This document shows positions 12,321 to 45,616 of a DNA stretch of 64,000 nucleotides, in pieces. The translations under genes were made by a program, and so were the position numbers. How positions within the stretch are numbered: the stretch's first letter is position 1; each line of letters starts with the position of its first letter. The DNA comes from an uncultured Planctomycetia bacterium (GTDB taxonomy: Bacteria > Omnitrophota > Gorgyraeia > 2-02-FULL-51-18), in the NCBI GenBank assembly GCA_964606485.1, contig CAZSGP010000001.1:417085-481084 (forward strand), in the 5' to 3' direction. Below the pieces are notes generated by a model, which did no database searches, was not told where the DNA came from, and saw nothing but the letters and a program-made list of their open reading frames with translations.

Positions 12321-13424
12321 ATGGAAACCTTGCAGAGAGTGCGTTCGCTTTTAATCGGATCAGCGCTCATTCTTATGGGCATTGGTGTCGTGATGATTTA
12401 CAGTGCCAGCGCTATTTATGCGTTTGATCAAATGAAAGACAGCACTTATTTTTTAAAACGGCATTTGGTTTACCTTGCTCTTGGCGGAATACTGCTCTGG
12501 GTGGCAAGCCGGGTCAATATTCAAGCGTTGCGGCGCCACACCAAGGCGATTTTAATTTGGGGGATTGTGCTGGTTGTTCTGGTGCTGCTTCCGTTTGTGG
12601 GTCACTCGGCGGGGGGCGCGCGGCGTTGGTTTAAAATTTTGGGGCTGAGTTTTCAACCGTCCGAGTATTTGAAGCTTGCTGTTATTTTTTACATGGCTGA
12701 TTTTTTGGATCGCCGAAAAGAAACAATTTCTGATTTAAAGCACACCGTTTTTCCGGCGATTGTAGTCTTAGGGCTTTGTGCGGGCCTCGTTTTTTTACAG
12801 CCCGATCTCGGAACCGCGGTCACGATTGCGCTTGTGACGCTTATTCTATTTTTTACGGCGGGATTTAACATTAAACATCTCTTGTCGATGATTATCTGCG
12901 GTATTCCAGTCCTTTTGTACGCGATGCTCGCAAAGCCTTACCGGCGAAAAAGAATCTTGGCGTTCGTGAACCCGTGGGAAGATCCGCGGGGAGTGGGGTA
13001 TCAGGTGATTCAATCTTTTCTAGCCATTGGCTCCGGAGGAATTTTTGGCGTGGGTCTTGGACGGTCGCAGCAAAAATTATTTTTCCTCCCGGAATCTCAC
13101 ACGGATTTTATTTTCTCGATTATTGCCGAGGAGCTTGGATTTCTAGGAACAAGTTCGATTGTAATTTTATTTGCGGTGTTTATTTTTTCAGGCATGGTGA
13201 TTGTGTTTCGTGCGAAGAGTCATTTTTCACAGCTCTTGGGCATGGGGCTTGTGAGTTTGATCGGCCTTCAGGCGGTGATCAATATTGGAGTCAGCACCGG
13301 CGCGCTGCCCACCAAAGGGTTGTCACTCCCGTTTATTAGCTACGGAGGTTCCGCGCTTTTAACGAATATGACCGCTTTGGGGTTACTCATTAATCTTTCA
13401 AGGGAGCTTCCGGAGGACTCATGA
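12321..13424 (+). CDS. ftsW: Peptidoglycan glycosyltransferase / lipid II flippase FtsW (SEDS family)
   Basis: Ten-TM SEDS protein with PESHTDFIFS and GGSALL motifs, between murD and murG. Confidence 0.9.
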   Translation: METLQRVRSLLIGSALILMGIGVVMIYSASAIYAFDQMKDSTYFLKRHLVYLALGGILLWVASRVNIQALRRHTKAILIWGIVLVVLVLLPFVGHSAGGARRWFKILGLSFQPSEYLKLAVIFYMADFLDRRKETISDLKHTVFPAIVVLGLCAGLVFLQPDLGTAVTIALVTLILFFTAGFNIKHLLSMIICGIPVLLYAMLAKPYRRKRILAFVNPWEDPRGVGYQVIQSFLAIGSGGIFGVGLGRSQQKLFFLPESHTDFIFSIIAEELGFLGTSSIVILFAVFIFSGMVIVFRAKSHFSQLLGMGLVSLIGLQAVINIGVSTGALPTKGLSLPFISYGGSALLTNMTALGLLINLSRELPEDS

Positions 13425-14506
13425 AAATTGTTCTAGCTTGCGGAGGAACTGGGGGGCACATTTTCCCGGCCTTTAGCGTCGCCGAAGAATTAAAAAAAAG
13501 AAATCCATCTGTCGAAATTGTTTATGTCTGCGGCAACATGGACATTGAAAGCGCTATTTTTAAAATTATTCGAGGTGAGCGCGTGTTTTCGGTGACGAGC
13601 GCGGCGTTCCGTGGAGGGAGATCGCTTCTTGATATTCGTTTTCTGATCAAGCTATTTAAAGGTCTTTCGGCGAGCTTCTGGTTCTTAAAAAAAGAAAAGC
13701 CGGCGCTTGTGGTGGGTTTTGGCGGATATTTTTCGTTTCCCATGGTGTTCACAGCGCGTCTACTCGGAATTCGCGCCATGGTTCACGAGCAAAATGTGAT
13801 TCCGGGGGTCGCCAATAAGATTTTAGCCAAAATGGTCAACGGTGTGGCGCTTAGCTTCGAGGACACGCTCTCTTACTTTAACGATAAACACAATTTGCGC
13901 GTGACGGGAAACCCCATTCGCTCGTCGATCGAAAATGCTTCCCAAAAAGACGCGCTTCAATTTTTTGGATTTTCTCCTGACAAAAAAACCCTGCTTGTGC
14001 TCGGGGGAAGCCAAGGAGCAGAGTCGATTAACACGCTTTTTATTGACGCGCTTTCTTATTTGGAGCCCGAATTTAAAAGTAAATTGCAGGTGTTGCATCT
14101 ATGCGGCAAAATGAATCCAGCCGAATCAGAGGCTGCGTTTAAGCGCCACGGAATTCTCGCCAAATCTTTTTCGTTTTTTGAGCGAATGGACTTGGCGTAT
14201 GGCGCAAGCTCTGCGGCGATTGGACGCGCGGGCGCTACTTTCTTAGCGGAAATTCAGGCGCGAAAAATCCCAGCGATTTTAATCCCTTATCCGTACAGCA
14301 ATGGTCATCAGTCCAAAAATGCGGAAAGTTATAGTCGGACCGATCGCGCTATCGTCGCCGAGCAATTTGGGTTATCCTCGCAGAAATTGGCAGAACATGT
14401 TAAAAGTATAGTAGCGCTTTCGGATGAACAGGGTTCGAAAACCATGCCGTCAGTGAGTGCGCGGGCGAGACTAGCGGATTACATCGAAGAAACAGTTGGA
14501 GTTTAA
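13421..14506 (+). CDS. murG: UDP-GlcNAc:undecaprenyl-PP-MurNAc-pentapeptide GlcNAc transferase MurG
   Basis: MKIVLACGGTGGHIFPA N-terminal G-loop; GGSQGA. Confidence 0.9.
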   Translation: MKIVLACGGTGGHIFPAFSVAEELKKRNPSVEIVYVCGNMDIESAIFKIIRGERVFSVTSAAFRGGRSLLDIRFLIKLFKGLSASFWFLKKEKPALVVGFGGYFSFPMVFTARLLGIRAMVHEQNVIPGVANKILAKMVNGVALSFEDTLSYFNDKHNLRVTGNPIRSSIENASQKDALQFFGFSPDKKTLLVLGGSQGAESINTLFIDALSYLEPEFKSKLQVLHLCGKMNPAESEAAFKRHGILAKSFSFFERMDLAYGASSAAIGRAGATFLAEIQARKIPAILIPYPYSNGHQSKNAESYSRTDRAIVAEQFGLSSQKLAEHVKSIVALSDEQGSKTMPSVSARARLADYIEETVGV

Positions 14507-14509: not shown

Positions 14510-17500
14510 GTGAAAATTCATTTTATCGGAATTGGTGGCATTGGCATGAGCGGCATTGCGCGCCTTTATCTGCAAAGCGGCCACACCGTTTCTGGAAGCG
14601 ATTTGAAGTATGCGGATGTGATTGGCGGGCTCGAAAAGCTGGGAGCTAAAATTTTTATTGGTCACAAAGCGCAAAACGTCGAAGGCGCCGAGCTTGTCGT
14701 GTATTCCTCGAGCATTAAAAACGATCACGTGGAAATTGTGTTTGCGCGCGAACGGCAGATCCAGGTGATTCATCGTTCGGAAGCGCTGGCGCGTCTTTGT
14801 GAGGGAAGATTTACCATTGCCGTGTCTGGAACGCACGGCAAGACGACTACCACTTCGTTGATTGGTATGATTCTAAAAGAAGCTGAAAAAGATCCGCTCG
14901 TGGTGGTTGGGGGGATTGTGAAGGAGTTTGGCGGCAATGCCCGCGCAGGTTCCGGCCCTGCCGTCATCGAAGCTGACGAGAGCGATGCTTCTTTTTTAAA
15001 TTTTTCACCCAATATTTCCGTCGTCACCAATATCGAAGCCGAGCATTTGGATCACTTTGGAAATTTTGAAAATGTACTCACGGCGTTTCGAAATTTTATC
15101 AAGCGCCTGCCTGAAAACGGCGTGTGGATTGGCACGTCGGACGACAGCGGTGTGAAGATTTTGGCCGAAGAAAAAAGCCGGCGCTTTGTGGGTTGCAAGC
15201 TCGGTGAGAGTGGCGTTGATTTCTGGGCGAGCGATATTGTGGAGTGTCCCGAAGGAAACCGTGGAATTTCTTTTAATGTTTGGAAAGGCAGCGAGAATTT
15301 AGGCAAAGTGTCGATGCGCATGATGGGCACGCATAACGCCTCAAACGCGCTTTGCGCGGTAGCCGTCGGCTTGGAGTTAGGAATCAATTTTCAAGTCATT
15401 GCCTCAGCCCTCGGCAAATACGAAGGCGCCCGGCGCCGTTTTGACGTGCGCTACGAAGATTCTGAGCTATTAATTGTCGATGACTATGCCCATCACCCGA
15501 CAGAAATTAAAAAAACATTGTCTGCTGCAAGGGCCATTGCCAATAAACGCATTGTGGCGCTTTTTCAGCCGCATCGCTACTCGCGCACCGAAGCATTTTT
15601 AAATGAATTCAGCGAAAGCTTTCATCATGCCGATCAGCTCATCATTACCGATATTTATGCCGCGTCCGAATCTCCGCGGCCCGGCATTAGCGGGGAAAAG
15701 CTTTCCGAAGCCGCTCACGACGCGGGGCACCCAAACGTAACCTTTGTGAAGCGAGACCGCTTGAGCGACTTTGCTAAAAATGAAATCCGGCCAGGGGATT
15801 TAGTGATTACGCTCGGCGCCGGAGACATTAGTCAAGTGGCTAGCGAAATTTCTGATTACTTGCGTCAAAGAAGTCTTTTTTCCGGATTTCGCGGACGCGT
15901 GTTGATCAATGAATCCTTGAGCCGCCACACCTCCTTAAAAATCGGAGGACCGGTCGAAGCGTGGGTAGAGCCAGCTGACGAAGCGGATTTAAAACGGCTT
16001 TTAGAAATCGCCAAGGAAAATAATAAAAAAATTTATATTTTTGGTGGGGGAAGCAATATTTTGGTCGCCGACGAGGGCTTAAAAGGATTCGCGTTGAACC
16101 TTGGTGGAAACGCTTTTAAGGAAATTCGATTGGAAAATGGGAAGGTGCTTGTCCGGGGAGGCGTTCCCAATGCGCTATTTATTCAATTTGCGCTGGAACA
16201 CAATTTAGGCGGTTCTGAATTTTTATCAGGCATCCCGGGGACGATTGGTGGAGCGGTGGCGATGAACGCCGGAAGCCACGGACAGTCAGTGGACCTCATT
16301 TTAGAACAAATTCGTGTGATGGATTTTGATGGCAATGAAAGTGTGCTTAAAAAAGATGATCTGGGTTTCGGATACCGGACTTCGAATATTAAAAATAAAA
16401 TTGTGCTCGAGGCTACATTTGCTCTGCCAGCGCGGGCCCACGAAGAATCTCAGAAAATATTAGACGAATACCGCCAACGCCGCGCTAAAACACAGGATCT
16501 GTGGCATGCCAGTGCCGGCTGTATGTTTAAAAACCCGATGGATTCGAATTGTTCGAGCGGCAAACTCATCGACGACGCCGGTTTAAAAGGCAAGACCGTT
16601 GGTCGGGCTCAAGTTTCGGAGAAGCACGCGAATTTTATTATCAATTTGGGTGGCGCTAAGTCCGGCGACATCATTGGATTAATCCGCGAAGTTCAAAAAT
16701 CTGTCGAGCAGCGCTTTGGGTTGCGGCTAGAGGAAGAGGTTCGGTATTTTTCAGACGAGCCGGAGAAGTTGAAAGGCGCTGCCGTTGCGATTGAAGCGGT
16801 GGAACTTCCCAAAAAAATCGTGGTTTTGGCTGGGGGAACGTCTTGTGAGCGGGAAGTGTCACTCGTTTCCGGAAAAGCCGTTTGTGACGCGCTTACTCAA
16901 AAAGGATTGAATGCTATTCTGCTCGACCCTGTCGGAGATTTTGAGCCTCAGCTTCGAAACCAAAAACCGGATTTTGCGTTCATTGCCTTGCACGGAACGT
17001 TTGGCGAAGACGGAGCTGTGCAGAAAATTTTAGATAAAGAAGAAATTCCTTATAGCGGCTCAGGACCCGAAGCGAGTGCCAAAGCGTTTGATAAGGCCAA
17101 AGCTCAAGCCTTTTTTAAGGATGCAGGAATCGACGTGGCTGATTTTGCAGTGCTCGACCAAAGCTTTGGAATTCGCGTGCCTCAAGGGATCCCATTTCCG
17201 CTCGTGGTGAAGCCTTCTGCTGCCGGTTCCAGTGTGGGAATCACTCTTCTGCAGGACGCTGGTATGTTTGAGGCTGCGGTGAAAGAAGCGTTTAAGTATT
17301 CGGACAAGGTGCTCGTCGAAAAATACATCTCTGGACGGGAGTTGACGGTGGGAATTTTGGGGGACCAGACGCTTCCCATAGTCGAAATTGTATCCAAAAG
17401 AAAATTTTATGATTATCAAGCGAAATACGGCGACTCCGGAACGACGTATGAAGTGCCGGCAAAAATTGAGCCGGTCCTCGCTCAAAAGATCGCTCAAATT

Positions 17501-17725
17501 GCACTCAAAGCCCATCGCATTTTAGGCTGTGAAGCCATGTCCCGCGTTGATTTTATCCTGGGCGAAGACGGAACGCCGTATCTGCTTGAAATCAATACCA
17601 TCCCGGGTCTCACGGGCCGGAGCTTGCTCCCGAAGGCAGCCAAAGCTGCCGGCATCGATTTCGGCTCGCTTTGTGTTAAAATCATCGAGCTTTCACTGGA
17701 GTCCCAAAGTTGCCAAAGCCCGTAA
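14510..17725 (+). CDS. murC-murB-ddl: Trifunctional fusion MurC - MurB - Ddl in one ORF
   Basis: 1071-aa uninterrupted ORF. aa 1 to ~460 are MurC-like (IHFIGIGGIGMSGIA, VSGTHGKTTT). aa ~465 to ~755 are MurB-like FAD-binding reductase (LKIGGP, FGGGSNIL, GIPGTIGGAVAMNAG). aa ~770 to 1071 are D-Ala-D-Ala ligase ATP-grasp (KIVVLAGGTSCEREVSL, LHGTFGEDG, EINTIPG). There are no stops at the junctions near 15890 and 16790. Confidence 0.85.
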   Translation: MKIHFIGIGGIGMSGIARLYLQSGHTVSGSDLKYADVIGGLEKLGAKIFIGHKAQNVEGAELVVYSSSIKNDHVEIVFARERQIQVIHRSEALARLCEGRFTIAVSGTHGKTTTTSLIGMILKEAEKDPLVVVGGIVKEFGGNARAGSGPAVIEADESDASFLNFSPNISVVTNIEAEHLDHFGNFENVLTAFRNFIKRLPENGVWIGTSDDSGVKILAEEKSRRFVGCKLGESGVDFWASDIVECPEGNRGISFNVWKGSENLGKVSMRMMGTHNASNALCAVAVGLELGINFQVIASALGKYEGARRRFDVRYEDSELLIVDDYAHHPTEIKKTLSAARAIANKRIVALFQPHRYSRTEAFLNEFSESFHHADQLIITDIYAASESPRPGISGEKLSEAAHDAGHPNVTFVKRDRLSDFAKNEIRPGDLVITLGAGDISQVASEISDYLRQRSLFSGFRGRVLINESLSRHTSLKIGGPVEAWVEPADEADLKRLLEIAKENNKKIYIFGGGSNILVADEGLKGFALNLGGNAFKEIRLENGKVLVRGGVPNALFIQFALEHNLGGSEFLSGIPGTIGGAVAMNAGSHGQSVDLILEQIRVMDFDGNESVLKKDDLGFGYRTSNIKNKIVLEATFALPARAHEESQKILDEYRQRRAKTQDLWHASAGCMFKNPMDSNCSSGKLIDDAGLKGKTVGRAQVSEKHANFIINLGGAKSGDIIGLIREVQKSVEQRFGLRLEEEVRYFSDEPEKLKGAAVAIEAVELPKKIVVLAGGTSCEREVSLVSGKAVCDALTQKGLNAILLDPVGDFEPQLRNQKPDFAFIALHGTFGEDGAVQKILDKEEIPYSGSGPEASAKAFDKAKAQAFFKDAGIDVADFAVLDQSFGIRVPQGIPFPLVVKPSAAGSSVGITLLQDAGMFEAAVKEAFKYSDKVLVEKYISGRELTVGILGDQTLPIVEIVSKRKFYDYQAKYGDSGTTYEVPAKIEPVLAQKIAQIALKAHRILGCEAMSRVDFILGEDGTPYLLEINTIPGLTGRSLLPKAAKAAGIDFGSLCVKIIELSLESQSCQSP

Positions 17726-18525
17726 AAAACAGGCCTAAGAAAAAATCTGTCTTAGGTTCCTTCTCCGTCAAGATGGCCGGAGGTTTTAGAAGCACGCTCC
17801 TTGCGTGTTTTCCTTACTTTTTATCGCTGGCGCTGGCCGGAATTTTTTTTGGCGGAGTGCTAGCCTACGCGATGAATTCTTCGGCCTTTCAGTTGCGGGA
17901 TGTCAAAATTTTAAATGCCGGCCCGATGAACTATGAGCAAGCTTTCGAATTTTGTGATCTAAGACCGGGGGAAAATCTGATTACGCTTGATCTTGTGGCT
18001 GTTCAACAGGTGATTCGCCGCAAGCATCCCGAGTTTAAAGAAGTTCGTGTTTCGAGAGTGCTGCCTAACCGCGTGGAAGTGGTGCTCAAGCGCCGCACAC
18101 CTGCCGCACAAATTGCATTTGGATCGCGCTTTGTGCAAATGGACCGCGATCTTGTTATTCTTCCTGGATCTGCCAATGCGCCTTTTAAAAATTTAACGGT
18201 TATCGACGGCGCTGTGGTTCCAAAGACCGGACTTTTTGTCGGCTCGAGTTTAACCGACCCCATGACCAAAAAAGCGCTAAAGCTTACTGAAATTATCAGG
18301 CAGTCGGAGCTCTCCAAAAAACACGTGCTTACCTCTATCGACATTCGTGACCCCAAGAACGTCTCCTTTTATTTTGATGGGGACCTGGAAATTCGTGTGG
18401 GCGGAAATCATTTTATTGAGAGGCTCAAAATTCTCGAGCAAACGACGAAAAACATCGAACTCGATCGCTCTAAGGTCCGATACGTCGATCTGCGTTTTGA
18501 CGACGTCGTCATCGGTCCCCGATGA
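17710..18525 (+). CDS. ftsQ: Cell division protein FtsQ/DivIB (POTRA domain)
   Basis: N-terminal TM helix and POTRA-like LRDVKILNAGPMNYEQAFEFCDLRPGENLITLDL. dcw position. The start may be M23 at 17773. Confidence 0.75.
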   Translation: MPKPVKNRPKKKSVLGSFSVKMAGGFRSTLLACFPYFLSLALAGIFFGGVLAYAMNSSAFQLRDVKILNAGPMNYEQAFEFCDLRPGENLITLDLVAVQQVIRRKHPEFKEVRVSRVLPNRVEVVLKRRTPAAQIAFGSRFVQMDRDLVILPGSANAPFKNLTVIDGAVVPKTGLFVGSSLTDPMTKKALKLTEIIRQSELSKKHVLTSIDIRDPKNVSFYFDGDLEIRVGGNHFIERLKILEQTTKNIELDRSKVRYVDLRFDDVVIGPR

Positions 18526-19547
18526 GCGAATACTCCATTCTCGACGTCGGTCATAAGACGACTGTTGTCCTTACCGCTCGCCGCGCAACACCCAATAGTT
18601 GGCAGATTCTAGGGGCAGGAGACAGCCCAACCCGCGGTTTTTTAAACGGGGAAATTTCTCATATTGGCGACTTGGTGGAAACGCTTGCGGAGGCCCGACG
18701 AAAATGCGAAAAGGCGTCCGGTGTTGCCATTAATCGTTTGTATTACAATTTTGATGACTCGCAGATTCAATCCATTCGTTCCAAGGGCCATAAATATTTA
18801 AAGGGAGAAGGCGAGATCACCTCGGTCGATGTGAAGGATGCAGCCGACGCTGCGCGTCGAAGCGCCGATACTTTCGAGCGCGCCACGGTTTACGCCAAAG
18901 AATTGTCGTTTGTCATTGACGGACGCGATCCCGTTTGGGATCCGATTGGAGTTTTTGGAGCAGAGCTCGAGGCCACACTTCATTTGCTGCAGGCGCGCTC
19001 TTCGCTGTGCCAGCAATGGAAAAGCGCTATTGAGCGCGCGCATATTTCGCAAGGGACTCTCGTGCCGTCGGCTTGGTCGGCTGCCGTTGCGATTTTGCCG
19101 CCATCAGACCGCGAGCGCGTGAGACTGATTTTGGATTTGGGCGAAGATTTCTTTAATTTTTTTACTTTTGAAAAATCGCGCATTACCGATGCCTGCACGT
19201 TGCTAGCCTGCTTGGATAGTAATGGCACCATGGATGAAGGCGCAGCGATGCTCCTTAAAAAAATTACCCAAGAAAATCCAAACATCGAACAAGTTTTTGT
19301 GACGGGTGATTTGGCAAGCCAGGAAAAAGTAATTCAAAAACTCGAAAGTGTCACGGGTCTTCCTGTTTTACAAGCGCCGGCTCTTGGAGTGTCGGGAGTT
19401 TTATCGCAACCTCGTTTCGCGTCAGCCGTTGGCCTTTTGTCGGTAGCGGAAGAAATTGAAAAAAGAGAGCCTGTGATGCGTAAGCCCCGGGGATTTCTAG
19501 ATGGAGTCAAAACAAAGGCGACGACGTTTATTCATGAATACTTTTAA
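18522..19547 (+). CDS. ftsA: FtsA-like actin-fold cell division protein (short, degenerate nucleotide-binding motifs)
   Basis: 341 aa, where FtsA is usually ~410-440. [12 protein letters not shown] phosphate-1-like N-terminus. The region equivalent to DxGGGT reads LDLGEDFF. Alignable to FtsA along its length. ftsZ is not downstream. Confidence 0.65.
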
Positions 19548-20748
19548 ACCAAGCCCCATTCCGGAAGTATTGGCGGAGCTCAAAAAAGGCCGCGTGATCA
19601 TCGTGGTGGACGACGAAGATCGCGAAAACGAAGGTGATCTCATCGTCTCCGCAGAATTTGCAACACCGGCCAATATTAATTTTATGGCCAAGCACGGCCG
19701 CGGCATTATTTGCGTGCCCATGGAGTCTGATCGTCTAAAGGAGCTTGGTATCGATTTAATGGTTCAGGTGAATACAGACGAGCTCAAAACGGCCTGGACG
19801 GTATCGATCGATGCCAAAAAGGGAGTCACGACCGGAATCTCCGCGTATGACCGCGCGCATACGATTAAAGTTTTAATTGATCCTAAGTCGAAGCCATCGG
19901 AATTGGCGAGACCGGGGCATATTTTCCCGCTGCGCGCCAGAGAGGGTGGCGTGCTCGTGCGCGCGGGCCACACCGAAGCGTGTGTGGACTTGATGAAGCT
20001 TGCCGGACTTTATCCGGCAGGCGCCATTTGTGAAATTATGAACGATGATGGCAGTATGGCGCGCACGCCGGATCTTGCGGCATTTGCAAAAACGCACAAA
20101 TTAAAAGTTTGCACCATTCGCGATCTCATCGAATACCGTCGCAAAAAGGAAAACCTGGTCTTCAAGGCGGTCGAAACGCAAATGACAAATGCGTACGGCG
20201 AATTTAAGCTTGTGGCCTACGAGTCTTCGGTGGATAAAGACTATCATGTGGCTCTCGTGATGGGAGATCTAACTGGTTCTAAGCCGGTGCTCGTGCGTGT
20301 GCACTCCGAATGTTTTACCGGAGACGTTCTGGGTTCCAAGCGATGTGACTGTGGTGAGCAATTAAACGCAGCGCTTGAGAAAATCGCCCGCGAAAAAAGA
20401 GGCGTTTTGCTTTACATGCGTCAAGAAGGGCGGGGGATTGGACTGCTGAACAAATTAAAAGCCTACCAACTTCAGGATCAGGGGCTGGATACTGTGGAGG
20501 CCAACGAGCGCCTGGGCTTTCCGGCGGATCTGCGACATTACGGAGTTGGCGCGCAAATTTTGGCAGATTTGGGAATCAAAAAAATTAAACTGCTAACCAA
20601 TAATCCTAAAAAAATTGTGGGTCTCGACGCGTATGGATTAAAAGTGGTCGAGCGCATTCCCATTGAAATGAAGCCAGGCCCTCACAATAAAAAATATCTC
20701 GCGACTAAAAAGAAAAAATTAGGCCATTTTCTGGAAGGCGTCGAATGA
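19534..20748 (+). CDS. ribBA: Bifunctional 3,4-dihydroxy-2-butanone-4-phosphate synthase / GTP cyclohydrolase II (RibBA)
   Basis: [14 protein letters not shown] (RibB domain); CDCGEQL and [11 protein letters not shown] (GTP cyclohydrolase II zinc site and loop). Start at the ATG at 19534, overlapping the ftsA-like stop by 14 nt. Confidence 0.9.
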
Positions 20749-21209
20749 TTCGGAAAACGAAGGGAAGTTACTCGGCGAAAAATTTAAAATTTGCGATCGT
20801 GGTGTCGCAGTTCAACGAAGCGCTCACGAACCGCCTCTTAGAAGGTGCCGTGGATACACTTCTGCGCAGTGGCGCCCAGGAAAAAAATATTGAAGCTATT
20901 TACGTTCCGGGAGCATTTGAAATTCCGCTCGCAGTTAAAAAAATTATTTCGCGGGAAAAAATTGATGCAGTGATCACGCTAGCGGTGGTGATTCGGGGGA
21001 AGACCAAACATTTTGACCAGGTGGTAAAAGAATCAGCCAAAGGAGTGCGTGAAATTTCTATGAAAACTCAAGTTCCGGTTATTTTGGGAATTATCCCAGC
21101 AGAAAATGAAGCCGATGCGCTTGCGCGTACCGGCATTAAACAAGCCAACAAAGGTCGCGACTGGGCACTTGCCGCGATTGAAATGGCCAATCTCATGAAG
21201 AAAATTTAA
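20745..21209 (+). CDS. ribH: 6,7-dimethyl-8-ribityllumazine synthase
   Basis: 154 aa. [10 protein letters not shown]...VPGAFEIP lumazine synthase signature. Confidence 0.9.
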
Positions 21210-21210
21210 G

Positions 21211-21636
21211 ATGAGAAAACGCACCCGTTCGAGAGAAATGGCGCTTCAAGCGCTGTACCAGTTAGACCTCGTTCAATCGAAGATCTCTGAGGCTTTGGAA
21301 AGCACCCGCGAAGAGCGGCAAGCTGAAGCGGCCGGCCCCGAAGTTAAAAAATATGCAGAAGTTTTAGTTCGCGGCGTCTCTGACAAGATCACGGATCTCG
21401 ATCAAGTTATTGAGCAGTTTGCCGAACACTGGAAAATTAACCGCATGGCCTGTGTGGACCGGAACATTTTAAGACTCTCCGCGTATGAAATTATTTACGT
21501 GGATGATGTTCCGCCGAAAGTGGCCATGAACGAAGCCATTGAGCTCGCCAAAAAATTTGGAGACTCCGATTCTCCCAAATTCGTGAACGGTATTTTGGAC
21601 AAGGTGGCCAACGTTTATGGGAAAAATAAATCCTAA
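21211..21636 (+). CDS. nusB: Transcription antitermination factor NusB
   Basis: 141 aa. ARxxALQALYQ-type NusB N-terminus. Classic ribH-nusB pairing. Confidence 0.9.
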   Translation: MRKRTRSREMALQALYQLDLVQSKISEALESTREERQAEAAGPEVKKYAEVLVRGVSDKITDLDQVIEQFAEHWKINRMACVDRNILRLSAYEIIYVDDVPPKVAMNEAIELAKKFGDSDSPKFVNGILDKVANVYGKNKS

Positions 21637-22717
21637 AGATATTCTCCTGATGCGCCAGGCGCTCAAGTGCGCCGAAAAAGGCCGCGGAGCCGTTCACCCT
21701 AATCCCATGGTGGGTGCGGTTCTTGTGAAAGAAGGCCGAGTGATCGCAGAAGGCTTTCACGAGAAATTTGGCGACCCCCACGCTGAAGTGAACGCGATTA
21801 AAAATTCGAAAGTAGACCCTCGCGGAGCGACGCTCTACGTCACGCTCGAACCCTGTTCGCATCAAGGGAAAACGCCGCCTTGCGCAGAATTCGTCATTAA
21901 AAGCGGTATTAAAAAAGTGGTGATTGCGCGCCAGGACTCGAATCCACTCGTTTCAGGCCGTGGAATTGCTGCCCTCAAAAAAGCAGGTGTTGAAGTTGTG
22001 TTGGGCGTACTCGAAAAAGAAAGTTCGCGGCTGAACCAGGATTTTGATTTTTGGATCCGCACTAAAATTCCATACGTTGTGGTCAAAGCCGCTCAGAGCG
22101 TGGACGGTAAAATTGCCACGAGCAGCGGTGACTCACAGTGGATTACAGGGGTTGAAGCCCGAAAACTTTCGCATCAACTTCGCTTGGAGGCTGACGCGGT
22201 TTTGGTGGGGGTGAACACAGTCTTAAAAGACGATCCGAAGCTTAGCGTCCGTGCCGTCAGAACAAAGCATCAGCCCGTTAAAATTATTTTAGACAGTTTT
22301 TTAAAAACGCCCCCGAACGCTAAGATTTTTTCGAAGGAATCTCCGGGCAAAGTGATTCTTGCGGTCACATCCAAAGTATCTCGACGTAAAATAAAATCCT
22401 TCGAGAAAAAAGCGCAGGTTTTAGTGGTCCCAGAAAAGGCGGGCCGCGTGGATTTCGAGTCCCTACTCAGAACGCTTGGAAAAGACGGGATTGTGAAAAT
22501 CTTAGTTGAGGGCGGTGGTGAGACAATTGCCTCCGCGCTCGAATCCAAGCGTGTTCAGGAAGCTTATTTTTTTGTGGCACCAACGATTATTGGAGGCCGA
22601 AGCGCAGTCGGTTCGGTGGCTGGAAATGGCGTAGGTCGTTTATCGCAAGCGCTTCACTTTCGGGAGTGGAGTGCGAAGCCGGTGGGAAAAGATCTTTTGA
22701 TTCATGGGTATTTTTAA
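21617..22717 (+). CDS. ribD: Bifunctional riboflavin biosynthesis protein RibD (deaminase/reductase)
   Basis: HAEVNAI...PCSHQGKTPPC CDA zinc motif, then a RibD reductase C-terminal domain. Confidence 0.9.
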   Translation: MGKINPKDILLMRQALKCAEKGRGAVHPNPMVGAVLVKEGRVIAEGFHEKFGDPHAEVNAIKNSKVDPRGATLYVTLEPCSHQGKTPPCAEFVIKSGIKKVVIARQDSNPLVSGRGIAALKKAGVEVVLGVLEKESSRLNQDFDFWIRTKIPYVVVKAAQSVDGKIATSSGDSQWITGVEARKLSHQLRLEADAVLVGVNTVLKDDPKLSVRAVRTKHQPVKIILDSFLKTPPNAKIFSKESPGKVILAVTSKVSRRKIKSFEKKAQVLVVPEKAGRVDFESLLRTLGKDGIVKILVEGGGETIASALESKRVQEAYFFVAPTIIGGRSAVGSVAGNGVGRLSQALHFREWSAKPVGKDLLIHGYF

Positions 22718-22718
22718 A

Positions 22719-23303
22719 ATGTTCACAGGCATAATCGAAGCGCAGGGAACGGTTAAAGCTTTTAAAAGCGGCAAGCTTGAGATTGTGGTCCCTCAATTTT
22801 TTGGAAAATTAAAAAGGGGTTCGAGTCTCGCTGTCGACGGCGTTTGTCTCACCGTTACGCGCCAGACTGCAAGAATTGCTGTTTTTGACGTGGTTCGAGA
22901 AACCCAGAAGCGCAGCACACTTGGATTGCTCGCAGCTGGTAGCCAGGTTAATTTGGAGCGTCCGCTCAAATGGCAGGGGCGCATCGAAGGGCATTTTGTA
23001 TCGGGCCATGTGGACGGGGTAGGAATTGTTAAAGTGGTGACAAAACGCAAGAACGAAACGGATATTCAAATCCAAGCATCCCCCAATCTAAAGGCCTTTC
23101 TCGTTGAAAAGGGGTCTGTGGCCATTAATGGGGCGAGTCTGACCCTTGGGAAAGTTAAGGGGGGTATTTTTTGGATTCATTGCATCCCCCACACCTTAAA
23201 ACTCACTAATTTAAACCGCCTCCAAAAGGGCGATCGGGTGAATTTGGAAGCGGATCTCGCCGCAAAGTTGATTTGCGCCAAACGTTCCCGGCGTTTTAAT
23301 TGA
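22719..23303 (+). CDS. ribE: Riboflavin synthase alpha subunit
   Basis: MFTGIIE start; two lumazine-binding repeats (SLAVDGVCLTV / SVAINGASLTL). Start at the ATG at 22719 rather than the track's 22704. Confidence 0.9.
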   Translation: MFTGIIEAQGTVKAFKSGKLEIVVPQFFGKLKRGSSLAVDGVCLTVTRQTARIAVFDVVRETQKRSTLGLLAAGSQVNLERPLKWQGRIEGHFVSGHVDGVGIVKVVTKRKNETDIQIQASPNLKAFLVEKGSVAINGASLTLGKVKGGIFWIHCIPHTLKLTNLNRLQKGDRVNLEADLAAKLICAKRSRRFN

Positions 23304-26127: not shown

Positions 26128-27687
26128 ATGTCAACCCATAGGCATTTAGCCAAATCTACCGGAATTATCGGGGGCTTAACCGCGGTGAGCCGTGTTTTGG
26201 GCTTTGTGCGGGACCTGGTTATCGCCTCCTTTTTTGGGACGGGGGTGGCGGCTGAGGCGTTTGTGGTCAGTTTCAAGATCCCCAATCTCTTGCGCGACCT
26301 GGTGGGGGAGGGCGCCACGAATGCGGCGTTTGTCCCTGTTTTAACGCAGTGCCACCAAGAGCGGAAGGAGGATTTTTGGAAGCTTGTGTCAACATTAGTG
26401 CTCACAATGACGCTTGTGCTGACAGCGCTTTCGGTGCTTGGCATTTGTTTTGCGCCCTGGGTGGTCAAAGCCATCGCACCGGGCTTCGCACAGTCGACCG
26501 ATAGCGAAAAACTTCCGCTCACGATTCATCTGACACAGATTATCTTTCCCTACATTTTACTGATTGGTCTCTCGGCACTGGCGATGGGAGTTTTAAATTC
26601 GCTCAAAGAATTCACGAGTTCCGCTTTGGGACCCTGCCTCATGAATCTTTCAATGATTGCGGCAGGTTTCTTTTTTGAAAGAACATACGGCCCAATGGCG
26701 CTTGTGATTGGAGTCCTGGCCGGAGGATTTTTACAGCTAGCCTGCCAGATCCCGGCGCTTTATCGCGTAGGATTTCGTTTTGAGAAGCCTGTTTTTAATC
26801 ATCCGGCGGTGGCGCAAATCGGAAAACTTTTAATTCCTCGAGCTCTAGGTTCAGCGCTTTACCAGATCAATGTATTCGTCGACTCAATCCTTGCATCTTT
26901 TGAAACGATTATCGGTCCGGGCGGGCAGTCGGCTCTTTATTATTCCAACCGCCTATTTCAGCTGCCGCTTGCGATATTCGGCGTTTCTTTGGCGCAAGCG
27001 GTTCTCCCGACTTTCTCAACGCAAGCCGTCCAAAAAGACATGGAGGGCTTTAAGCGCACACTCGCCGTGTCACTGCGCACGCTCGCGATGATTATTTTGC
27101 CAGCCGCGGTCGGGCTCCTTATGCTTTCGGAGCCGATTGTCCGAATAATTTTTGAGCACGGAAAATTTGATTCTTATTCGACAGGCATTACAAGCCAAGC
27201 GCTATTTTTTTACAGTTTCGGACTTTTGTCATGCTGCTTCATTAAAATTTATGCAAACGCATTTTATGCACTGCAAGACACCCGTACGCCGGTGAGAACG
27301 GCGTTGTTCGCCGTGTTTGTGAATATTTGCCTGAGTATTCTTCTGATGTATTCCTTGAGAATTGGGGGGCTGACACTCGCCTCGTCAATATCAGCGACCA
27401 TCAACGTTTGCTCGCTGCATTATTTTTTGAAGAAAAGGATTGGAGATTTTTCAGCGCCTGGATTTTTAAATTTTGCGTGGAAAATCGCTTTATCCAGCGC
27501 TGTGATGGCTGCCTACTGTTTTTTTCTGAACCAGTTTATTCTTGAAAACTGCAAGCATGCCTCAACGGCTGCGCAGGCTCTGCGGCTTGGAGGGGGAATC
27601 ACCGGCGGCGCTCTCCTTTATTTTGCCTGTGTGTATCTTCTACGCGTCGAAGAGCTCCAAAAAATTCTCAAATGGGCAAAGCGCTAG
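26128..27687 (+). CDS. murJ: Lipid II flippase MurJ (MviN)
   Basis: 519 aa, ~14 TM. GLTAVSRVLGFVRDLVIASFFG...PNLLRDLVGEGA MurJ N-terminal signature. Confidence 0.9.
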   Translation: MSTHRHLAKSTGIIGGLTAVSRVLGFVRDLVIASFFGTGVAAEAFVVSFKIPNLLRDLVGEGATNAAFVPVLTQCHQERKEDFWKLVSTLVLTMTLVLTALSVLGICFAPWVVKAIAPGFAQSTDSEKLPLTIHLTQIIFPYILLIGLSALAMGVLNSLKEFTSSALGPCLMNLSMIAAGFFFERTYGPMALVIGVLAGGFLQLACQIPALYRVGFRFEKPVFNHPAVAQIGKLLIPRALGSALYQINVFVDSILASFETIIGPGGQSALYYSNRLFQLPLAIFGVSLAQAVLPTFSTQAVQKDMEGFKRTLAVSLRTLAMIILPAAVGLLMLSEPIVRIIFEHGKFDSYSTGITSQALFFYSFGLLSCCFIKIYANAFYALQDTRTPVRTALFAVFVNICLSILLMYSLRIGGLTLASSISATINVCSLHYFLKKRIGDFSAPGFLNFAWKIALSSAVMAAYCFFLNQFILENCKHASTAAQALRLGGGITGGALLYFACVYLLRVEELQKILKWAKR

Positions 27688-28940
27688 TTTCCCCGAGTCT
27701 CGAACGTCGTATTCACGAATTGCCGCTGACCTGCGGCGTTTATTTTTTTAAGGACGGGCAGGGCATTCCGATCTACATCGGAAAAGCCATTTCCATTCGT
27801 AAGCGCATCCTGTCGCATTTTCGCGCGTATGGCGACACGGGTTCGAAAGCGGGGATGATGCTGTCGGAAGCGCGACGCATTGATTTTATAGAAACGCCGT
27901 CAGAAGCCGAGGCGCTGCTCCTCGAAGCGGCTCTCGTCAAAGAAAACCAGCCCAAGTTCAACAGCCTTTTAAAAGACGATAAAAGTTACCCTTTTTTAAA
28001 ATTAACGGCGGAGGAATATCCGCGGCTCATGGTGGTGCGAATCCGCAAATCCGACGGCGGGCGGTATTTTGGTCCCTACACCGATGTGCGTCTTCTCAAG
28101 CAGGCGGTTGGTCTATTGCGGCGCATGTTTCCGATGAGAACCTGCAAAAAACTTCCCAAAAAGGTGTGTCTCATGTATCACATCGGTCAGTGCGGGGGAC
28201 CGTGTGAAAATTTTCAATCGAAAGAAGATTATCTAAAAATCGTTAAAGAATTGGAAAATTTTTTAGATGGCCGCCGCGATGCGATGGTTCGCACGCTCAC
28301 GAAACGCATGAAAGAATTTTCTGCGGCCCAGGAATTTGAAAAAGCTAAAAGCACGTATGAAATGATTCGGGCTCTGTCTTTACTCCCGTCCGGGAATTCT
28401 AAAATAAAAGAGCGAAGCTCGCAAATTGAAGAACTTCAAAAAACGCTTGAGCTCCCCAAAACGCCGCACCGGATGGAATGTTTTGATATATCCAATATTT
28501 CCGGCAAGGAGGCGGTGGCGTCGATGGTGGTGTTTATCGATGGGCGTCCCGCAAAATCGGAGTATCGCAAGTTCAAGATTAAGACGGTTCAAGGAATTGA
28601 TGATTATAAGATGATGCGCGAAGTGGTGCGCCGGCGCTACACCCGCGTTTTAAACGAAAAAACACCTCTGCCAGATTTAGTGGTGATTGACGGGGGAAAG
28701 GGACACCTTTCCTCCGCGAAGGCGGAGTTGGATGTGATGGGGCTGCAGGACCAACCCATTATTTCCATCGCTAAGCAGCATGAGCATCTCTTTAAACCTG
28801 GTCGTGAAAAGCCCTATGTTTTGTCTTTAAGCTCGCCACTGCTTCAAATGATTCGTCATCTGCGCGACGAAGCCCACCGCTTCGCCATCCGCTACCACCG
28901 CGGCCTCCATCTCAAAGAGTCTCTCTCCAAAAAACGTTAA
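27672..28940 (+). CDS. uvrC: Excinuclease ABC subunit C (UvrC), short form without the C-terminal HhH domain
   Basis: GIY-YIG at the N-terminus (GVYFFKD...IYIGKA). Cys-rich CKK...CLMYHIGQCGGPC. UVR motif. RNase H-like endonuclease domain (FDISN...VIDGGKGHL). Ends at 422 aa, where UvrC is usually ~600. Confidence 0.8.
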   Translation: MGKALVSPSLERRIHELPLTCGVYFFKDGQGIPIYIGKAISIRKRILSHFRAYGDTGSKAGMMLSEARRIDFIETPSEAEALLLEAALVKENQPKFNSLLKDDKSYPFLKLTAEEYPRLMVVRIRKSDGGRYFGPYTDVRLLKQAVGLLRRMFPMRTCKKLPKKVCLMYHIGQCGGPCENFQSKEDYLKIVKELENFLDGRRDAMVRTLTKRMKEFSAAQEFEKAKSTYEMIRALSLLPSGNSKIKERSSQIEELQKTLELPKTPHRMECFDISNISGKEAVASMVVFIDGRPAKSEYRKFKIKTVQGIDDYKMMREVVRRRYTRVLNEKTPLPDLVVIDGGKGHLSSAKAELDVMGLQDQPIISIAKQHEHLFKPGREKPYVLSLSSPLLQMIRHLRDEAHRFAIRYHRGLHLKESLSKKR

Positions 28941-35553: not shown

Positions 35554-35606
35554 ATTTGATTATAAATCAAATAAATGTTGACATAAATGAATCCCGCGTG
35601 TAATCT
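35554..35606 (+). promoter_or_regulatory. Promoter of the giant gene (TTGACA-17-TAATCT) preceded by a perfect 19-bp palindrome ATTTGATT-ATA-AATCAAAT
   Basis: Palindrome 35554-35572; a third AATCAAAT copy at 35528-35535. -35 at 35578-35583, -10 at 35601-35606. RBS GGGAGGAG before the ATG at 35641. Confidence 0.5.
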
Positions 35607-35640
35607 TTGGTTATCGTTGACCGTTTGGGAGGAGCTCGGC

Positions 35641-38600
35641 ATGAAAAAATCAAAAATTTTAATGAAAGTCGTGGCTTGGGTTTTGGTGTTTAGCACATTT
35701 CTCCAGAGCGGCGCCTGGGCACTGACTCCGCGGGAACTTTTGGACCAGGCGAAAGCGTCGTTTGGGTTTATGAGCGAGGATCATCACCAAGGCGGGGGAT
35801 TGAGTGCTGCCGGATTAGCCACGACGCAGTCTCAAGCGCAGAGCGCGGTCGATCAGCAGAACGTTTTGCAGGATCTTCAGGGGATGAATTTTAGTCTCAC
35901 CACTCAAAACGGCGACACACTGAGCTATGTCCAAAACACATTGTCTCAAATTACTCGTCCAGACGGAACCACTCTGAATAACATTTCTCAAGATTCGAGT
36001 GGCAACATTACCGGGGCCAACCTTCTTTTGAGTGACGGGACCGTGCAGGTTCTGCAAGGTGGAAGCATTTTGGGGAGTCAGTCGCCCGACGGCGCTCAGG
36101 TTTTCTATGATCTGCAAACGGGAAAAATTCAAAGAACGGTTTCCGCAAGCGGAGAAGAAACGACTTATACCTATTCCGATACAGAAACCCTGTTAGAGAA
36201 CATTCATTTTCAAACTGTTTATGACACTGACCAAAAACTAAAGAAGATTGTTGATAAATCATCCGGTAAACAAAGTTTTTTTCAGGACGGAAGGCTTCAG
36301 CGAATTGTGTTGGCAGACCATTCTGAAATTTTATACAACTCTGCAGCCCAGGGAAACCAAATCAAGGTTTCGCTTGGCGCTTATAAGGATGCAAGCGGTA
36401 ATCTTTACACGTTTGACGCGAGTGGGCTTGTCACGCGCATTGAGTCGAGCGTTGGCGTGCGCTACGGCTCGCTCATTTGGGGCGTTGATCAAAAAATAAA
36501 AGACGCGGAGATTACTTTTTCGAATGGCTCAAGAGGGGTGTATCAGTCTCAGAAACTTGTCCGGCTCACAGATTCGTCGGGGCAGATTACAAATTTTACT
36601 TACACCGCGGACCGAATAGTGGCGGCGTCGAGTGGGGTGAGTTCAGAGTATCAGCTAGACGGAACACTCGTAAAGTCGACGGATTCTGTTGGTGGCCAGA
36701 GTTTTTATTTCACCAGCGGACTCCACAAGGGCTACAAAGAAAGAGAAGTCGATACAGCTGGAAATATTTTTGTTTATGAATATTCAGCTAATAACACAGT
36801 TGAGCGAAAACAAATTCTTCGATCTGAGCAGACAGTGACTACATTTGCTGGCCAATCCACGCTTTTGGCGCGCAACAACCCCTTTTTAGGATTCGAAGTT
36901 TCGTTTAATCAAGACACCGACACCCAAGGCGTGACCCTGCAAAGCCAGGGCTCCTATCCGCCGCTTCAAATTAAATTGATTCCCGGTCAGGACGCTCAAT
37001 GCACCATTGGTTCAAGTCCCGCGCAATTACTGGGTGTAAGAATTGAGAAGTCCGCGACTTATAAAGTTGAAATAAAATTAAGCCAAGCCAATGCTAAAAT
37101 TTTTATTTATAAATCAGGCACGCCCATTCCGCAAACTCCCACCAAAATTATTCAACAACGCGATTGGAATGCGCGCTTCAATCTTCAAGCCACAAACGCT
37201 CGTCTTGTGTTGGATTCGCGTTCAAGCGGCGTTTACCGAACGGCGGTGGAAACTTCAGATCGCCAAGCGGTTTACCGGACTGGGGCCGTGGTTGAACGCG
37301 TGGATTTTAGAATTGATCCGAATACTCAGAATCGCCCGAGCATTAGTCTGAATGCTGAGCAGAAAGATGCGGCCAATCACAGGCGCAGTTTCTCTATGGA
37401 ATACTCCAGCGGAAAATGGAGAATTCAGGCATACGGCGGCGGACCGCGCTCTCAAAGTTTTACGGTGAATCAAAATCTTCAGGCGGGTGTGGATTACGTG
37501 GCGGAGTTGCGCTTCGAAAATAACGCCCTCAATTTTTACGTTTACCCAAGCGCTCAAGCGCGACCCGCGAGTCCAACAGCAACGCTCAGCGCGCTTTCAA
37601 ACGCTGGCGCACGATTTTCGTCAAGCCTCGATAAAGCGCAAGGCACAGCCCAAGTTTTTTACAATCTGCAATCGGTTTCACTGCAAAGTGTGAAAGGGAA
37701 GGCTTTGCCTCAGGAGATGGACCCTGTTCGCAATGATCCTAATTTTTGGCTTGTTCAGCCGGCGCAAAGCGTTTTGGAAGCCGCTTCACCCGCAAAAATG
37801 ATTCTTTATGGTCAGACCGGCCAGATGGAGCGCGTTGAGAAATGGGACGGCTCAAAATTTATTTTTACAAATGGCGCTTTGTCTCAAATGTTGGATCCCC
37901 AAGGAAATATCACTCAGCTTTCGGTTAACTCTTCCGATCTTGGAAATATTCTTGGAGCGACGATTGAGCAGAGTGGGGCCGAGTCGCATTACAACGCCGA
38001 GGGAAAATTAGAAACCGTGCGGGTGGGAGACATAACGGTTCATTATAAAAGACAAGATTCTTCGGCTTCGCCTCAGAATGACGGGGGAATTGATTATCTT
38101 GAAAAATCGGATGGAACCGAAATTCACGACATTGTTTTTGGTGGTCAAGGTGAAATTCAAAACGCGTCGGTTTATTTGACGGATGGCCGTATTAAATTTT
38201 ATGAGAATGGTCATCTGGTTAAGAGCGTAGAAGCAGATCGCTCCCAGATTTTCTTTGTGAATGACCAAGCCACGCAAATGATTACGCCTCAGGACCTGCA
38301 TTACGATTTTAATTACATGCCCGGACAGATTGAGGCGGTTCTGAATGTCGGATCTGTCATTCCCGCGCAGGCGGGAATCAGCGTGGATCCCCGCTTCCGC
38401 GCGGATGACACCGTTGTCCGGATGGTCTACGACTCCAATTTCAATCTCCAGAGCATGGTCCGGCAAAATAACGAAATCATCAATTTCTCCGGCAATCACA
38501 TTCAGTCGATTTTGACTCCCAGTCAGTTGCCGCAAACCGTTGTGCAGTTGGCTGAGGGTTACAAAGTTCTACAGGACAACACTGAAACGTTTTACGACTC

Positions 38601-44415: not shown

Positions 44416-44819
44416 TGAAGAAAATACACGCTGGCTTGCCTTACGTAATATCGTTAATATATGTTTTCCTTGGCGTTGTTATTTATGATTGGACCACGCA
44501 CATGGCCCCGGCGCTGGACGGAAGAGGGCAAGCTAGAACTATTTTTCTAGAAACATTTTTAATATGTCTCGGCTTAATTATTTTTGTCACAACGTTTATC
44601 GAGCGAAGGAAAAATATTAGCCAGTTATTTTGGTCTTTTTTATTCTTTTCGGGGTTGACCATACTTGTGGTTGTCGGCTTCATAGTGTCACTGGCTGATA
44701 GATCAGCAAATTCAACCCTATTGAAGAATTACTGGGAATATTTGTGGGTATCAGTTATTCTTTACTTGCCAGCAGTACTTTTGTATCTTTTGAAGATTAA
44801 GAGGCCCGTTAACTCATAA
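44415..44819 (+). CDS. Small 4-TM membrane protein, translationally coupled (TAATG) to the giant gene; candidate immunity/partner protein
   Basis: 134 aa, four hydrophobic helices. The start overlaps the giant gene stop by 1 nt. Confidence 0.5.
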   Translation: MKKIHAGLPYVISLIYVFLGVVIYDWTTHMAPALDGRGQARTIFLETFLICLGLIIFVTTFIERRKNISQLFWSFLFFSGLTILVVVGFIVSLADRSANSTLLKNYWEYLWVSVILYLPAVLLYLLKIKRPVNS

Positions 44820-45175
44820 TGAGAACAATATTAACCCCCATTTTGCTTCTGTTGTTTTTTAGCGTAGGCGTCATTGCAAACGCAAGCGATGCTCTTGTTC
44901 AGGAAGGGAAAAAGGCCATCGAAAATGGTCGTTACGAGGAAGCTGTTAATGACGTTGGTCAGATTTTAGATAAGTCAGACAACGTTTCGCGTGATCCTGA
45001 AGTATTGAGTTTGCATAAGGCCATCCAAGCATATGGTATGATTCGGTTAAATGATCACGGTTATGATAAAGAAATCGAACAAAATTTAACAGGTGCAATT
45101 AGCCTTGATCCAAATTGGGAGTATCCAAAAAAATTATTGGAAGAATTTCGAATTTCCAAGGACCATAAAATTTAG
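44819..45175 (+). CDS. Small secreted protein (TPR-like helix pair), translationally coupled (TAATG)
   Basis: 118 aa. Signal peptide MRTILTPILLLLFFSVGVIANA. Confidence 0.45.
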   Translation: MRTILTPILLLLFFSVGVIANASDALVQEGKKAIENGRYEEAVNDVGQILDKSDNVSRDPEVLSLHKAIQAYGMIRLNDHGYDKEIEQNLTGAISLDPNWEYPKKLLEEFRISKDHKI

Positions 45176-45187
45176 AAATTTATCTGC

Positions 45188-45397: not shown

Positions 45398-45616
45398 AGA
45401 GCCGCAATAAAAATATTTTTCCAGCCGGAATTTCGCGGCAATTCGTAATTTTATCCAAAGTAAGCGCAATTAAGCGATAAAACGTGAAGATACACTACGA
45501 GCCATCAAAAGCATTTTTTATATGGCTAAAGAAGTTAAAGATTTTTAAGAAGTGCTCTTGTAAGCGGGTCATTCATATGCCAGACTTTTTCCGTGGTAGG
45601 ATTGGAGGTCTGAGCA

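Follow-up and report, generated by a model that had tools for sequence, protein, structure and literature searches.

Can a bacterium keep FtsA where the gene for its partner FtsZ is missing, and what is left of the protein when it does? The question is raised by a short ftsA-like gene at the end of the division and cell wall (dcw) cluster in a 64-kb window, the whole stretch analysed here, of the 546-kb contig CAZSGP010000001.1. We find that this gene, from an Omnitrophota lineage, truly descends from ftsA and that its product misses three defining features of FtsA: subdomain 2B, the nucleotide motifs and the score thresholds of the curated models. In what follows, coordinates refer to the 64-kb window, L-numbers are locus labels and P-numbers are protein labels. 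The gene and the parts of its product are:

18522..19547, forward strand: ftsA-like gene, 341 aa, without subdomain 2B (SHS2_FTSA, TIGR01174, AlphaFold2 (AF2) model and structural matches)
18759..18986, forward strand: subdomain 1C (SHS2), residues 80-155 (Pfam match; 16 of the 38 invariant columns fall in residues 76-149)
19131..19154, forward strand: degenerate phosphate-2 motif LDLGEDFF, residues 204-211 (D205, G207 and D209 invariant in 18 family members)
19206..19292, forward strand: what is left of subdomain 2B (residues ~229-257), one helix versus ~80-90 aa in canonical FtsA
19293..19319, forward strand: degenerate adenosine motif VFVTGDLAS, residues 258-266 (T261 and G262 invariant, then D or E)
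19491..19544, forward strand: C-terminal tail of 18 residues, a candidate membrane-targeting helix (Y340 and F341 invariant; AF2 helix 326-340)

In Pfam, the 341-aa protein matches SHS2_FTSA (PF02491) with 47.8 bits against a cutoff of 25.4 (residues 80-155 aligned to profile positions 2-77 of 79), and it has no match to PF14450 at E≤1. The sequence-only reading of this DNA had described a short, motif-degenerate FtsA, and alignment to FtsA hidden Markov models (HMMs) bears this out: TIGR01174 gives 112.3 bits, below its cutoff of 175.85, with residues 6-223 aligned to model positions 4-220 of 371, and NF007009 gives 52 bits against a cutoff of 409. A profile built from 18 family members (alignment A1) matches solved FtsA structures in the PDB at 1.3e-38, and an AF2 model built on A1 has a pLDDT of 89.2 and a pTM of 0.84. 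When this model was compared with the PDB by Foldseek, the top 19 matches were all FtsA (E 5.9e-29 to 8e-20, TMq 0.72-0.80, TM 0.79 for the first), and the next structural class was PilM, at E 1e-15. The protein occurs letter for letter on the 546,306-bp NCBI contig and in a Logan assembly of SRR12487046. Named homologues come from Candidatus Omnitrophica/Omnitrophota, for example RIFCSPHIGHO2_02_FULL_51_18 (GCA_001804125.1). TIGR01174 and PF14450 miss the short FtsAs, some of which are deposited as "hypothetical protein"; because these standard models miss them, gene-presence surveys will under-count FtsA in Omnitrophota.

The gene is short because subdomain 2B (about 60 aa) is deleted. Columns 9-237 of the A1 profile match residues 6-233 of FtsA structures and columns 250-319 match residues 315-388, leaving FtsA residues ~234-314 without a counterpart, with about 80 residues swapped for about 12. 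In the AF2 model, a lone helix (residues 239-251) stands between the beta-hairpin of 2A and the strand of the adenosine motif. In the family, 54-57 aa separate the phosphate-2 and adenosine motifs, versus 116-123 aa in canonical FtsAs. Further, in an alignment of 138 sequences, a canonical FtsA of 414 aa has two stretches, residues 241-291 and 317-326, that the window protein leaves unmatched, and the first of these stretches takes in the EVPGVGDREPKRLSR hairpin. As judged from the alignments and the model, the deletion is a clean loss of 2B, to which the FtsZ tail binds. The binding site for FtsZ in E. coli and T. maritima is 2B with its S12-S13 strands; in E. coli, removing 2B or S12-S13 leaves FtsA unable to interact with FtsZ, and subdomain 1C serves self-interaction and the recruitment of FtsQ and FtsN (PMC4281207).

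Compared with canonical FtsA (E. coli, Vibrio and T. maritima; 7Q6D, 7Q6F and 4A2A, the last being the complex of FtsA with the FtsZ tail), the window protein has the same actin-like (ASKHA) two-lobed fold with the 1C/SHS2 insertion in 1A, the same gene position right after ftsQ at the dcw end, and a tail behind a flexible linker. It differs in being about 60-80 aa shorter for want of 2B, in having no ftsZ downstream, in its phosphate-2 motif (GGGT replaced by x-D-F) and adenosine motif (GG replaced by G-D), and in scoring below the model thresholds.

The sequence-only reading had also given phosphate-2 as LDLGEDFF in place of DxGGGT. That wording is confirmed, and D-x-G-x-D proves to be invariant family-wide. 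The adenosine motif is likewise T-G-D/E throughout the family, the second G of the canonical LTGG being replaced, and phosphate-1 (canonical DxGT) is kept in part, as LDVGHK. With the glycine-rich phosphate-2 and adenosine motifs lost, the short FtsA most likely does not bind ATP.

What is conserved in the short FtsA lies elsewhere in the protein. The 18-member family has 38 invariant columns, and among 47 short representatives conservation is 0.59 in 1C, 0.58 in the tail, 0.52-0.57 in 1A, 0.40-0.44 in 2A and 0.28 in the 2B remnant, so that 1C is the best conserved globular domain and the 2B remnant the least conserved region. In 73 canonical FtsAs, by contrast, conservation peaks at the phosphate-2 block and is low in the tail (0.15-0.31). 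The tail of the short form, with the conserved pattern ...F-I-x-E-Y-F, sits after a linker that the AF2 model leaves disordered and at low confidence, and has hydrophobic residues at i, i+1, i+4, i+8, i+11, i+12 and i+15.

Searched exhaustively with an HMM, a set of 1.84 billion representatives clustered at 50% identity yielded 230 proteins at E≤1e-30, with about 60 full-length short forms of 318-353 aa scoring 240-505 bits. For one pair of loci (L012 versus L013, 92.6% identical), dN/dS is 0.22 over 324 codons and alike in both halves of the gene. Across 13 loci, median pairwise identity is 43% for the FtsA-like protein, 57% for MurG, 66% for FtsQ and 81.5% for RibBA, making the ftsA-like gene the fastest-evolving of the block. 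In model groups, FtsA is usually better conserved than FtsQ; because FtsA identity here falls below that of FtsQ, against the usual order, constraint on FtsA has relaxed in this lineage. On this comparative evidence, the short FtsA is nevertheless a functional gene under purifying selection and not a relic.

Some features of the family stand apart from this result. FtsQ is unusually well conserved in the short-FtsA lineage: it has 207 homologues, and the best 120 of the 207 are all at least 56% identical. L012 and L013 (JACPXO010000071.1 and JACPXO010000131.1) belong to one metagenome-assembled genome (MAG), each contig carrying the ftsA-like/ribBA junction, presumably through strain heterogeneity in the bin. 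A second tier of short FtsAs (P0202-P0204, P0208, P0210, P0213, P0214, P0222, P0224, P0229 and P0241; 329-349 aa), all from Logan contigs, has lost the DxG of phosphate-1 too (for example LLEVNEAF) and keeps the ...EYF end. A third kind lacks 2B and has near-canonical motifs (DIGSSLT with LAGGG, or DIGGG with ITGG): P0235 and P0243 (360-361 aa) and P0264 (348 aa). The taxonomic identity of unassigned contigs was taken from sequence similarity. In a rough neighbor-joining tree, the window family adjoins a clade of ...EYF-ending FtsAs that includes a named Omnitrophota protein (P0236, UCH12282.1), of 409 aa and hence canonical size, encoded on the 1,137,816-bp contig CP070655.1. In the same tree the third-kind proteins group with the long Omnitrophota FtsAs, which suggests that 2B was lost more than once.

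The genes around the ftsA-like gene bear on whether FtsZ is missing. Upstream, the dcw genes run in one direction in the order mraZ, rsmH, a small ORF, ftsI, murE, murF, mraY, murD, ftsW and murG. From murG onward, the ftsA-like gene has the following neighbors:

13421-14506, forward strand: murG, the last gene ahead of the murC-murB-ddl fusion
14510..17725, forward strand: murC-murB-ddl triple fusion, 1071 aa (Pfam: Mur_ligase three times, FAD_binding_4 with MurB_C, Dala_Dala_lig N and C)
17710..18525, forward strand: ftsQ, 271 aa (Pfam: POTRA_1 31.2 bits, FtsQ_DivIB_C 27.9 bits)
19534..20748, forward strand: ribBA (DHBP synthase / GTP cyclohydrolase II; DHBP_synthase 297 bits, GTP_cyclohydro2 256 bits)
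20745-21209, forward strand: ribH (DMRL_synthase; Pfam, on the identical contig L001)
21211-21636, forward strand: nusB (NusB; Pfam, on L001)
21617-22717, forward strand: ribD (dCMP_cyt_deam_1 with RibD_C; Pfam, on L001)
22704-23303, forward strand: ribE (Lum_binding; Pfam, on L001)

After ribE come bamD, lptE and holA, and all genes from murG through holA overlap or abut. The ATG of the ftsA-like gene shares 4 nt with the stop of ftsQ (ATGA, 18522-18525), and its TAA stop (19545-19547) overlaps the start of ribBA by 14 nt. The sequence-only reading had given both the 341-aa length and this 14-nt overlap, and both can be read from the sequence. The ribBA start (ATG at 19534) was picked by homology to the N-termini of relatives, and the product scores 637 bits with NF006803, exceeding the cutoff of 569.

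ribBA thus occupies the slot in which ftsZ would be expected, here and in all relatives, as the sequence-only reading had it for the window. Our scan for ftsZ took in the 64-kb window and the related loci at +/-10 kb. The tubulin signature GGGTG[ST]G is absent from all six frames of the window, no large ORF of the window matches Tubulin/FtsZ in Pfam, and no tubulin signature occurs within +/-10 kb of the related loci. The order ftsQ-short ftsA-ribBA-ribH-nusB-ribD-ribE-bamD-lptE-holA is identical in every related locus long enough to display it; the loci behind this synteny are L002/L003, L005, L010-L017, L018 and L020. The ftsQ-short ftsA-ribBA junction itself, with spacings of 0-25 nt, recurs at all the related loci that we fetched, and is therefore not a chance arrangement. 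FtsZ genes met in the scans sit in other organisms: L006 (an N-terminal fragment), whose FtsZ presumably resembles that of alphaproteobacteria, L026, L028, L030 and L032, whose FtsZ presumably resembles that of Bacteroidota, and L034, from a divergent low-GC organism.

Other Omnitrophota have different genes after ftsA. L022 and L023 read ddl-ftsQ-ftsA(409)-proC-yggT; L037, on CP070655.1, reads murB-ddl-ftsQ-ftsA-proC fragment; L038 reads ftsQ-ftsA(360)-rpsU, its ftsA encoding P0243 at 1093-2175; and L040, L041 and L042 read ddl-ftsQ-ftsA(408-409)-yggS-proC-yggT-plsX-fabH-fabD (10001-13080 in L040, 6001-9194 in L041 and L042). At none of the Omnitrophota dcw ends that we fetched, with long or short FtsA, does ftsZ lie directly 3' of ftsA. 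The genes yggS-proC-yggT lie just downstream of ftsZ in many bacteria; because ftsA runs straight into them in L040-L042, ftsZ looks to have been singly excised there. Since ftsZ is missing next to the genes of long Omnitrophota FtsAs too, losing 2B and losing ftsZ from its slot do not strictly go together. The long form represented by UCH12282.1 resembles the window protein in its ...EYF end, in its often degenerate motifs (DIGKDL, LTGAPS) and in having no ftsZ next to it, and differs in having 2B, in matching PF14450 and in being followed by yggS, proC and yggT instead of the riboflavin operon.

Published surveys extend the question to whole genomes. Rivas-Marin et al. [quoted passage not shown] A figure legend in Pende et al. 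(2021) lists FtsZ as missing in Planctomycetes, Omnitrophica and Chlamydiae, and FtsA as missing in Planctomycetes and Chlamydiae. Supplementary Data 2 of the same study records no FtsZ and one FtsA for O. magneticus (KJJ85610.1) and for RIFOXYB12_FULL_50_7 (OGX11215.1), no FtsZ and two FtsAs for WOR_2 SM23_29, neither protein for GWA2_41_15, and two FtsZs with one FtsA for OLB16. OLB16 (NCBI taxid 1617433) is now assigned to Candidatus Hinthialibacterota in the NCBI taxonomy, and the three other Pende genomes that we checked stay in Omnitrophota. Because of this reclassification, the only FtsZ-positive "Omnitrophica" of the two surveys drops out, and bona fide Omnitrophota in Pende et al. (2021) number 0/4 with FtsZ and 3/4 with FtsA. 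The suggestion, made from the sequence, that a missing ftsZ is a trait of some bacteria of the Planctomycetes-Verrucomicrobia-Chlamydiae (PVC) group therefore holds up, the lineage being Omnitrophota, of that group, and the surveys having no FtsZ in its bona fide members. From these surveys together with the gene context, ftsZ is likely to be absent from the whole genome.

The literature is otherwise divided on FtsZ in Omnitrophota: the matter was open in 2016, Pende et al. (2021) have the group FtsZ-less, Henriques et al. (2025) have its dcw genes conserved, and a 2025 review names planctomycetes as the only free-living bacteria dividing without FtsZ (PMC12673574). Seymour 2023, a 2026 complete-genome preprint and a giant-gene preprint make no statement on division. 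In the literature we found no description of a natural FtsA without 2B, and FtsA kept in an FtsZ-less phylum appears only in the table and legend of Pende et al. (2021).

We propose that the short FtsA serves FtsQ and FtsWI as a membrane-tethered, probably nucleotide-free adaptor and that its lineage has no FtsZ, a reading to which we give a probability of roughly 0.6. With 2B and the phosphate-2 and adenosine motifs gone, the protein most likely binds neither FtsZ nor ATP. An FtsA without 2B would also be unable to form canonical filaments; the longitudinal contacts of canonical FtsA reportedly involve 2B, in the 2012 work of Szwedziak and colleagues. What selection would have kept is the 1A core, 1C/SHS2 and the ...EYF tail behind its flexible linker, that is, a membrane-tethered adaptor or regulator translationally coupled to ftsQ, whose conserved 1C/1A face may couple to the septal peptidoglycan synthase formed by FtsQ(LB), FtsW and FtsI. 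Such a protein would be a permanently "unlocked" FtsA for which the Z-ring is no longer needed. Some defects of the divisome are bypassed in E. coli by FtsA variants that self-interact less, R286W in 2B being one (PMC11323482); an FtsA without 2B would be a permanent version of this state. Under the proposal, ftsZ was lost from the dcw end and probably genome-wide, as in other Omnitrophota. In its place, ribBA-ribH-nusB-ribD-ribE now abuts ftsA, is free of a riboswitch and is probably read through from the division genes. The loss of FtsZ and ATP binding, the membrane tethering, the partners, the co-transcription and the genome-wide absence of ftsZ are all matters that we infer. A broader version, in which Omnitrophota divide without FtsZ yet keep an FtsA that repeatedly shed 2B and the nucleotide site while 1C and the tail stayed under selection, is more tentative, and we hold it at somewhat less than even odds.

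Several points weigh against the proposed adaptor. For the source genome, the ftsZ scan spans 64 kb out of a 546-kb contig and a still larger genome, the cited MAG surveys drew on incomplete genomes, and Henriques et al. (2025) count Omnitrophota among the phyla with "highly conserved" dcw genes, making no specific statement on ftsZ. Full-length FtsAs of other Omnitrophota are likewise without an adjacent ftsZ. Judged by its hydrophobic moment, the tail is weakly amphipathic: the value is 0.27, no higher than in shuffles (22% reach it), and that of the E. coli tail is 0.57. An ftsZ elsewhere in the genome would accommodate the 64-kb limit and the statement of Henriques et al., as well as the broken-up dcw clusters of many PVC bacteria; the short FtsA would then serve a Z-ring through another surface or tether, and loss of 2B would be a quirk of the lineage. 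On this argument, adjacency of ftsA and ftsZ is uninformative in Omnitrophota, because even the long FtsAs there lack it. We consider this unlikely: two independent surveys have no FtsZ in any genome still classed as Omnitrophota, it is exactly the FtsZ-binding element that the protein has lost, and the junction of ftsA with yggS-proC-yggT in L040-L042 is as expected if ftsZ alone had been excised.

Two further explanations take the protein out of division altogether. As a decaying relic without function, it would be heading for the loss seen in Chlamydiae and Planctomycetes, and its low median identity (43% versus 66% for FtsQ), its degenerate catalytic motifs and the still more degenerate tier without phosphate-1 (P0203, P0208) could be taken that way. 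Decay is very hard to reconcile, however, with an intact ORF whose length stays within 318-353 aa across some 60 clusters (50% identity), with 38 invariant columns, with a dN/dS of 0.22 in both halves, with a confident AF2 fold and with a start translationally coupled to ftsQ; the pseudogene reading was rejected on dN/dS and conservation. The protein could instead have been re-purposed, either as a cytoplasmic anchor like PilM, holding a bitopic membrane protein of another machine, or in an envelope role with bamD and lptE, given that PilM is the second-best structural class and that the gene lies in a long co-directional array with bamD, lptE and holA. PilM (5EOU, 2YCH) does have an ASKHA fold, and its 1C-like domain clamps a cytoplasmic peptide belonging to its bitopic partner. 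It matches at 1e-15, however, against 6e-29 for FtsA, and no pil genes occur at the window locus, pilN/O/P/Q being absent nearby. The short ftsA lies always directly 3' of ftsQ, with stop and start overlapping or closely spaced, and its product keeps the SHS2_FTSA signature and an FtsA-type tail. PilM itself binds ATP and has no C-terminal membrane tail. Re-purposing is thus improbable, if less so than decay, and the PilM reading was rejected on gene context and on match strength, 14 orders of magnitude below FtsA.

[quoted passage not shown] Studies in E. coli suggest that it has a second job, in which 1C signals to the late divisome and FtsWI, and FtsI too is among the proteins that E. coli 1C recruits. 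If the adaptor proposal is true, this second job would be seen operating alone in nature. The broader version would amount to a natural split of Z-ring tethering from an older, FtsZ-independent role in switching on septal peptidoglycan synthesis through its synthase. Engineered E. coli FtsA without 2B or S12-S13, with which FtsA* R286W may be compared, has had the same structural element taken out, and there the FtsZ interaction is abolished and functions dependent on 1C are still separable (PMC4281207). Those are non-functional laboratory constructs in an FtsZ-dependent cell, whereas the form described here is natural, fixed in its lineage and under purifying selection. Chlamydiota and Planctomycetota are alike in belonging to the PVC group, in having peptidoglycan genes with ftsQ, ftsW and ftsI, and in having no ftsZ at the dcw end, but they have lost FtsA (Pende et al., 2021; PMC12673574), whereas the window lineage keeps a remodelled one. 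Its way of dividing without FtsZ, if confirmed, would differ from theirs, and under the broader version Omnitrophota would represent a third, distinct route to division without FtsZ.

The sequence-only reading had further held that no FMN riboswitch could fit upstream of ribBA, and Rfam agrees. RF00050 has no match in the window at the Rfam gathering score and none at E≤10 in 17000-21500, seven related loci have no Rfam riboswitch, and the spacer from ftsA to ribBA is -14 to about +25 nt across relatives. An FMN riboswitch is about 140 nt long. Because the genes abut and leave no room for a riboswitch, read-through from the dcw genes is the simplest reading, and co-transcription of the rib genes with the division genes is plausible from the arrangement. 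Promoter-like and terminator-like sites between 13 and 27 kb occur at shuffle frequency; internal promoters may lie inside coding sequence. The fusion of dcw and riboflavin genes is specific to the short-FtsA lineage, other Omnitrophota having yggS-proC-yggT or rpsU at this position.

Upstream of ftsQ, the murC-murB-ddl triple fusion is a further peculiarity of the window. Close relatives have a MurC-MurB fusion and a separate, overlapping ddl, and Omnitrophota with long FtsAs have three separate genes. MurC-MurB fusions (Verrucomicrobium) and MurC-Ddl fusions (Chlamydia) are known; to our knowledge, a MurC-MurB-Ddl triple fusion has not been described. A single-base error of assembly where murB and ddl overlap could also account for it, yet the NCBI and Logan (SRR12487046) assemblies agree on it.

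Elsewhere in the window, Rfam finds RNase P RNA and two tRNAs only, the latter at:

63-136: tRNA
171-244: tRNA

A CT398-like coiled-coil protein with a zinc ribbon adjoins the RNase P RNA (202 bits), the two lying within 263-979 and 1386-1688. UvrC (27672-28940) has 422 aa and is without the C-terminal HHH_5 carried by its relatives (469-480 aa), and about 500 nt between uvrC and prfB are apparently non-coding. The ORF at 35587-44415 encodes 2942 aa, and its one weak Pfam match, in residues 1984-2070, is to Peptidase_C39; Omnitrophota are known for very long proteins. The block at ~44000-64000 is probably a mobile or defence island. Its GC content is lower (0.41-0.43 at 44-52 kb), and it encodes a methyltransferase, a D12 adenine methylase, a C5 cytosine methylase, a 7TM-GAF histidine kinase accompanied by a response regulator, a ParB-like protein, a tyrosine integrase (55328-56242) and an SNF2 helicase (57810-60992). 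An ORF longer than 1000 aa, also in this block, continues past the end of the window.

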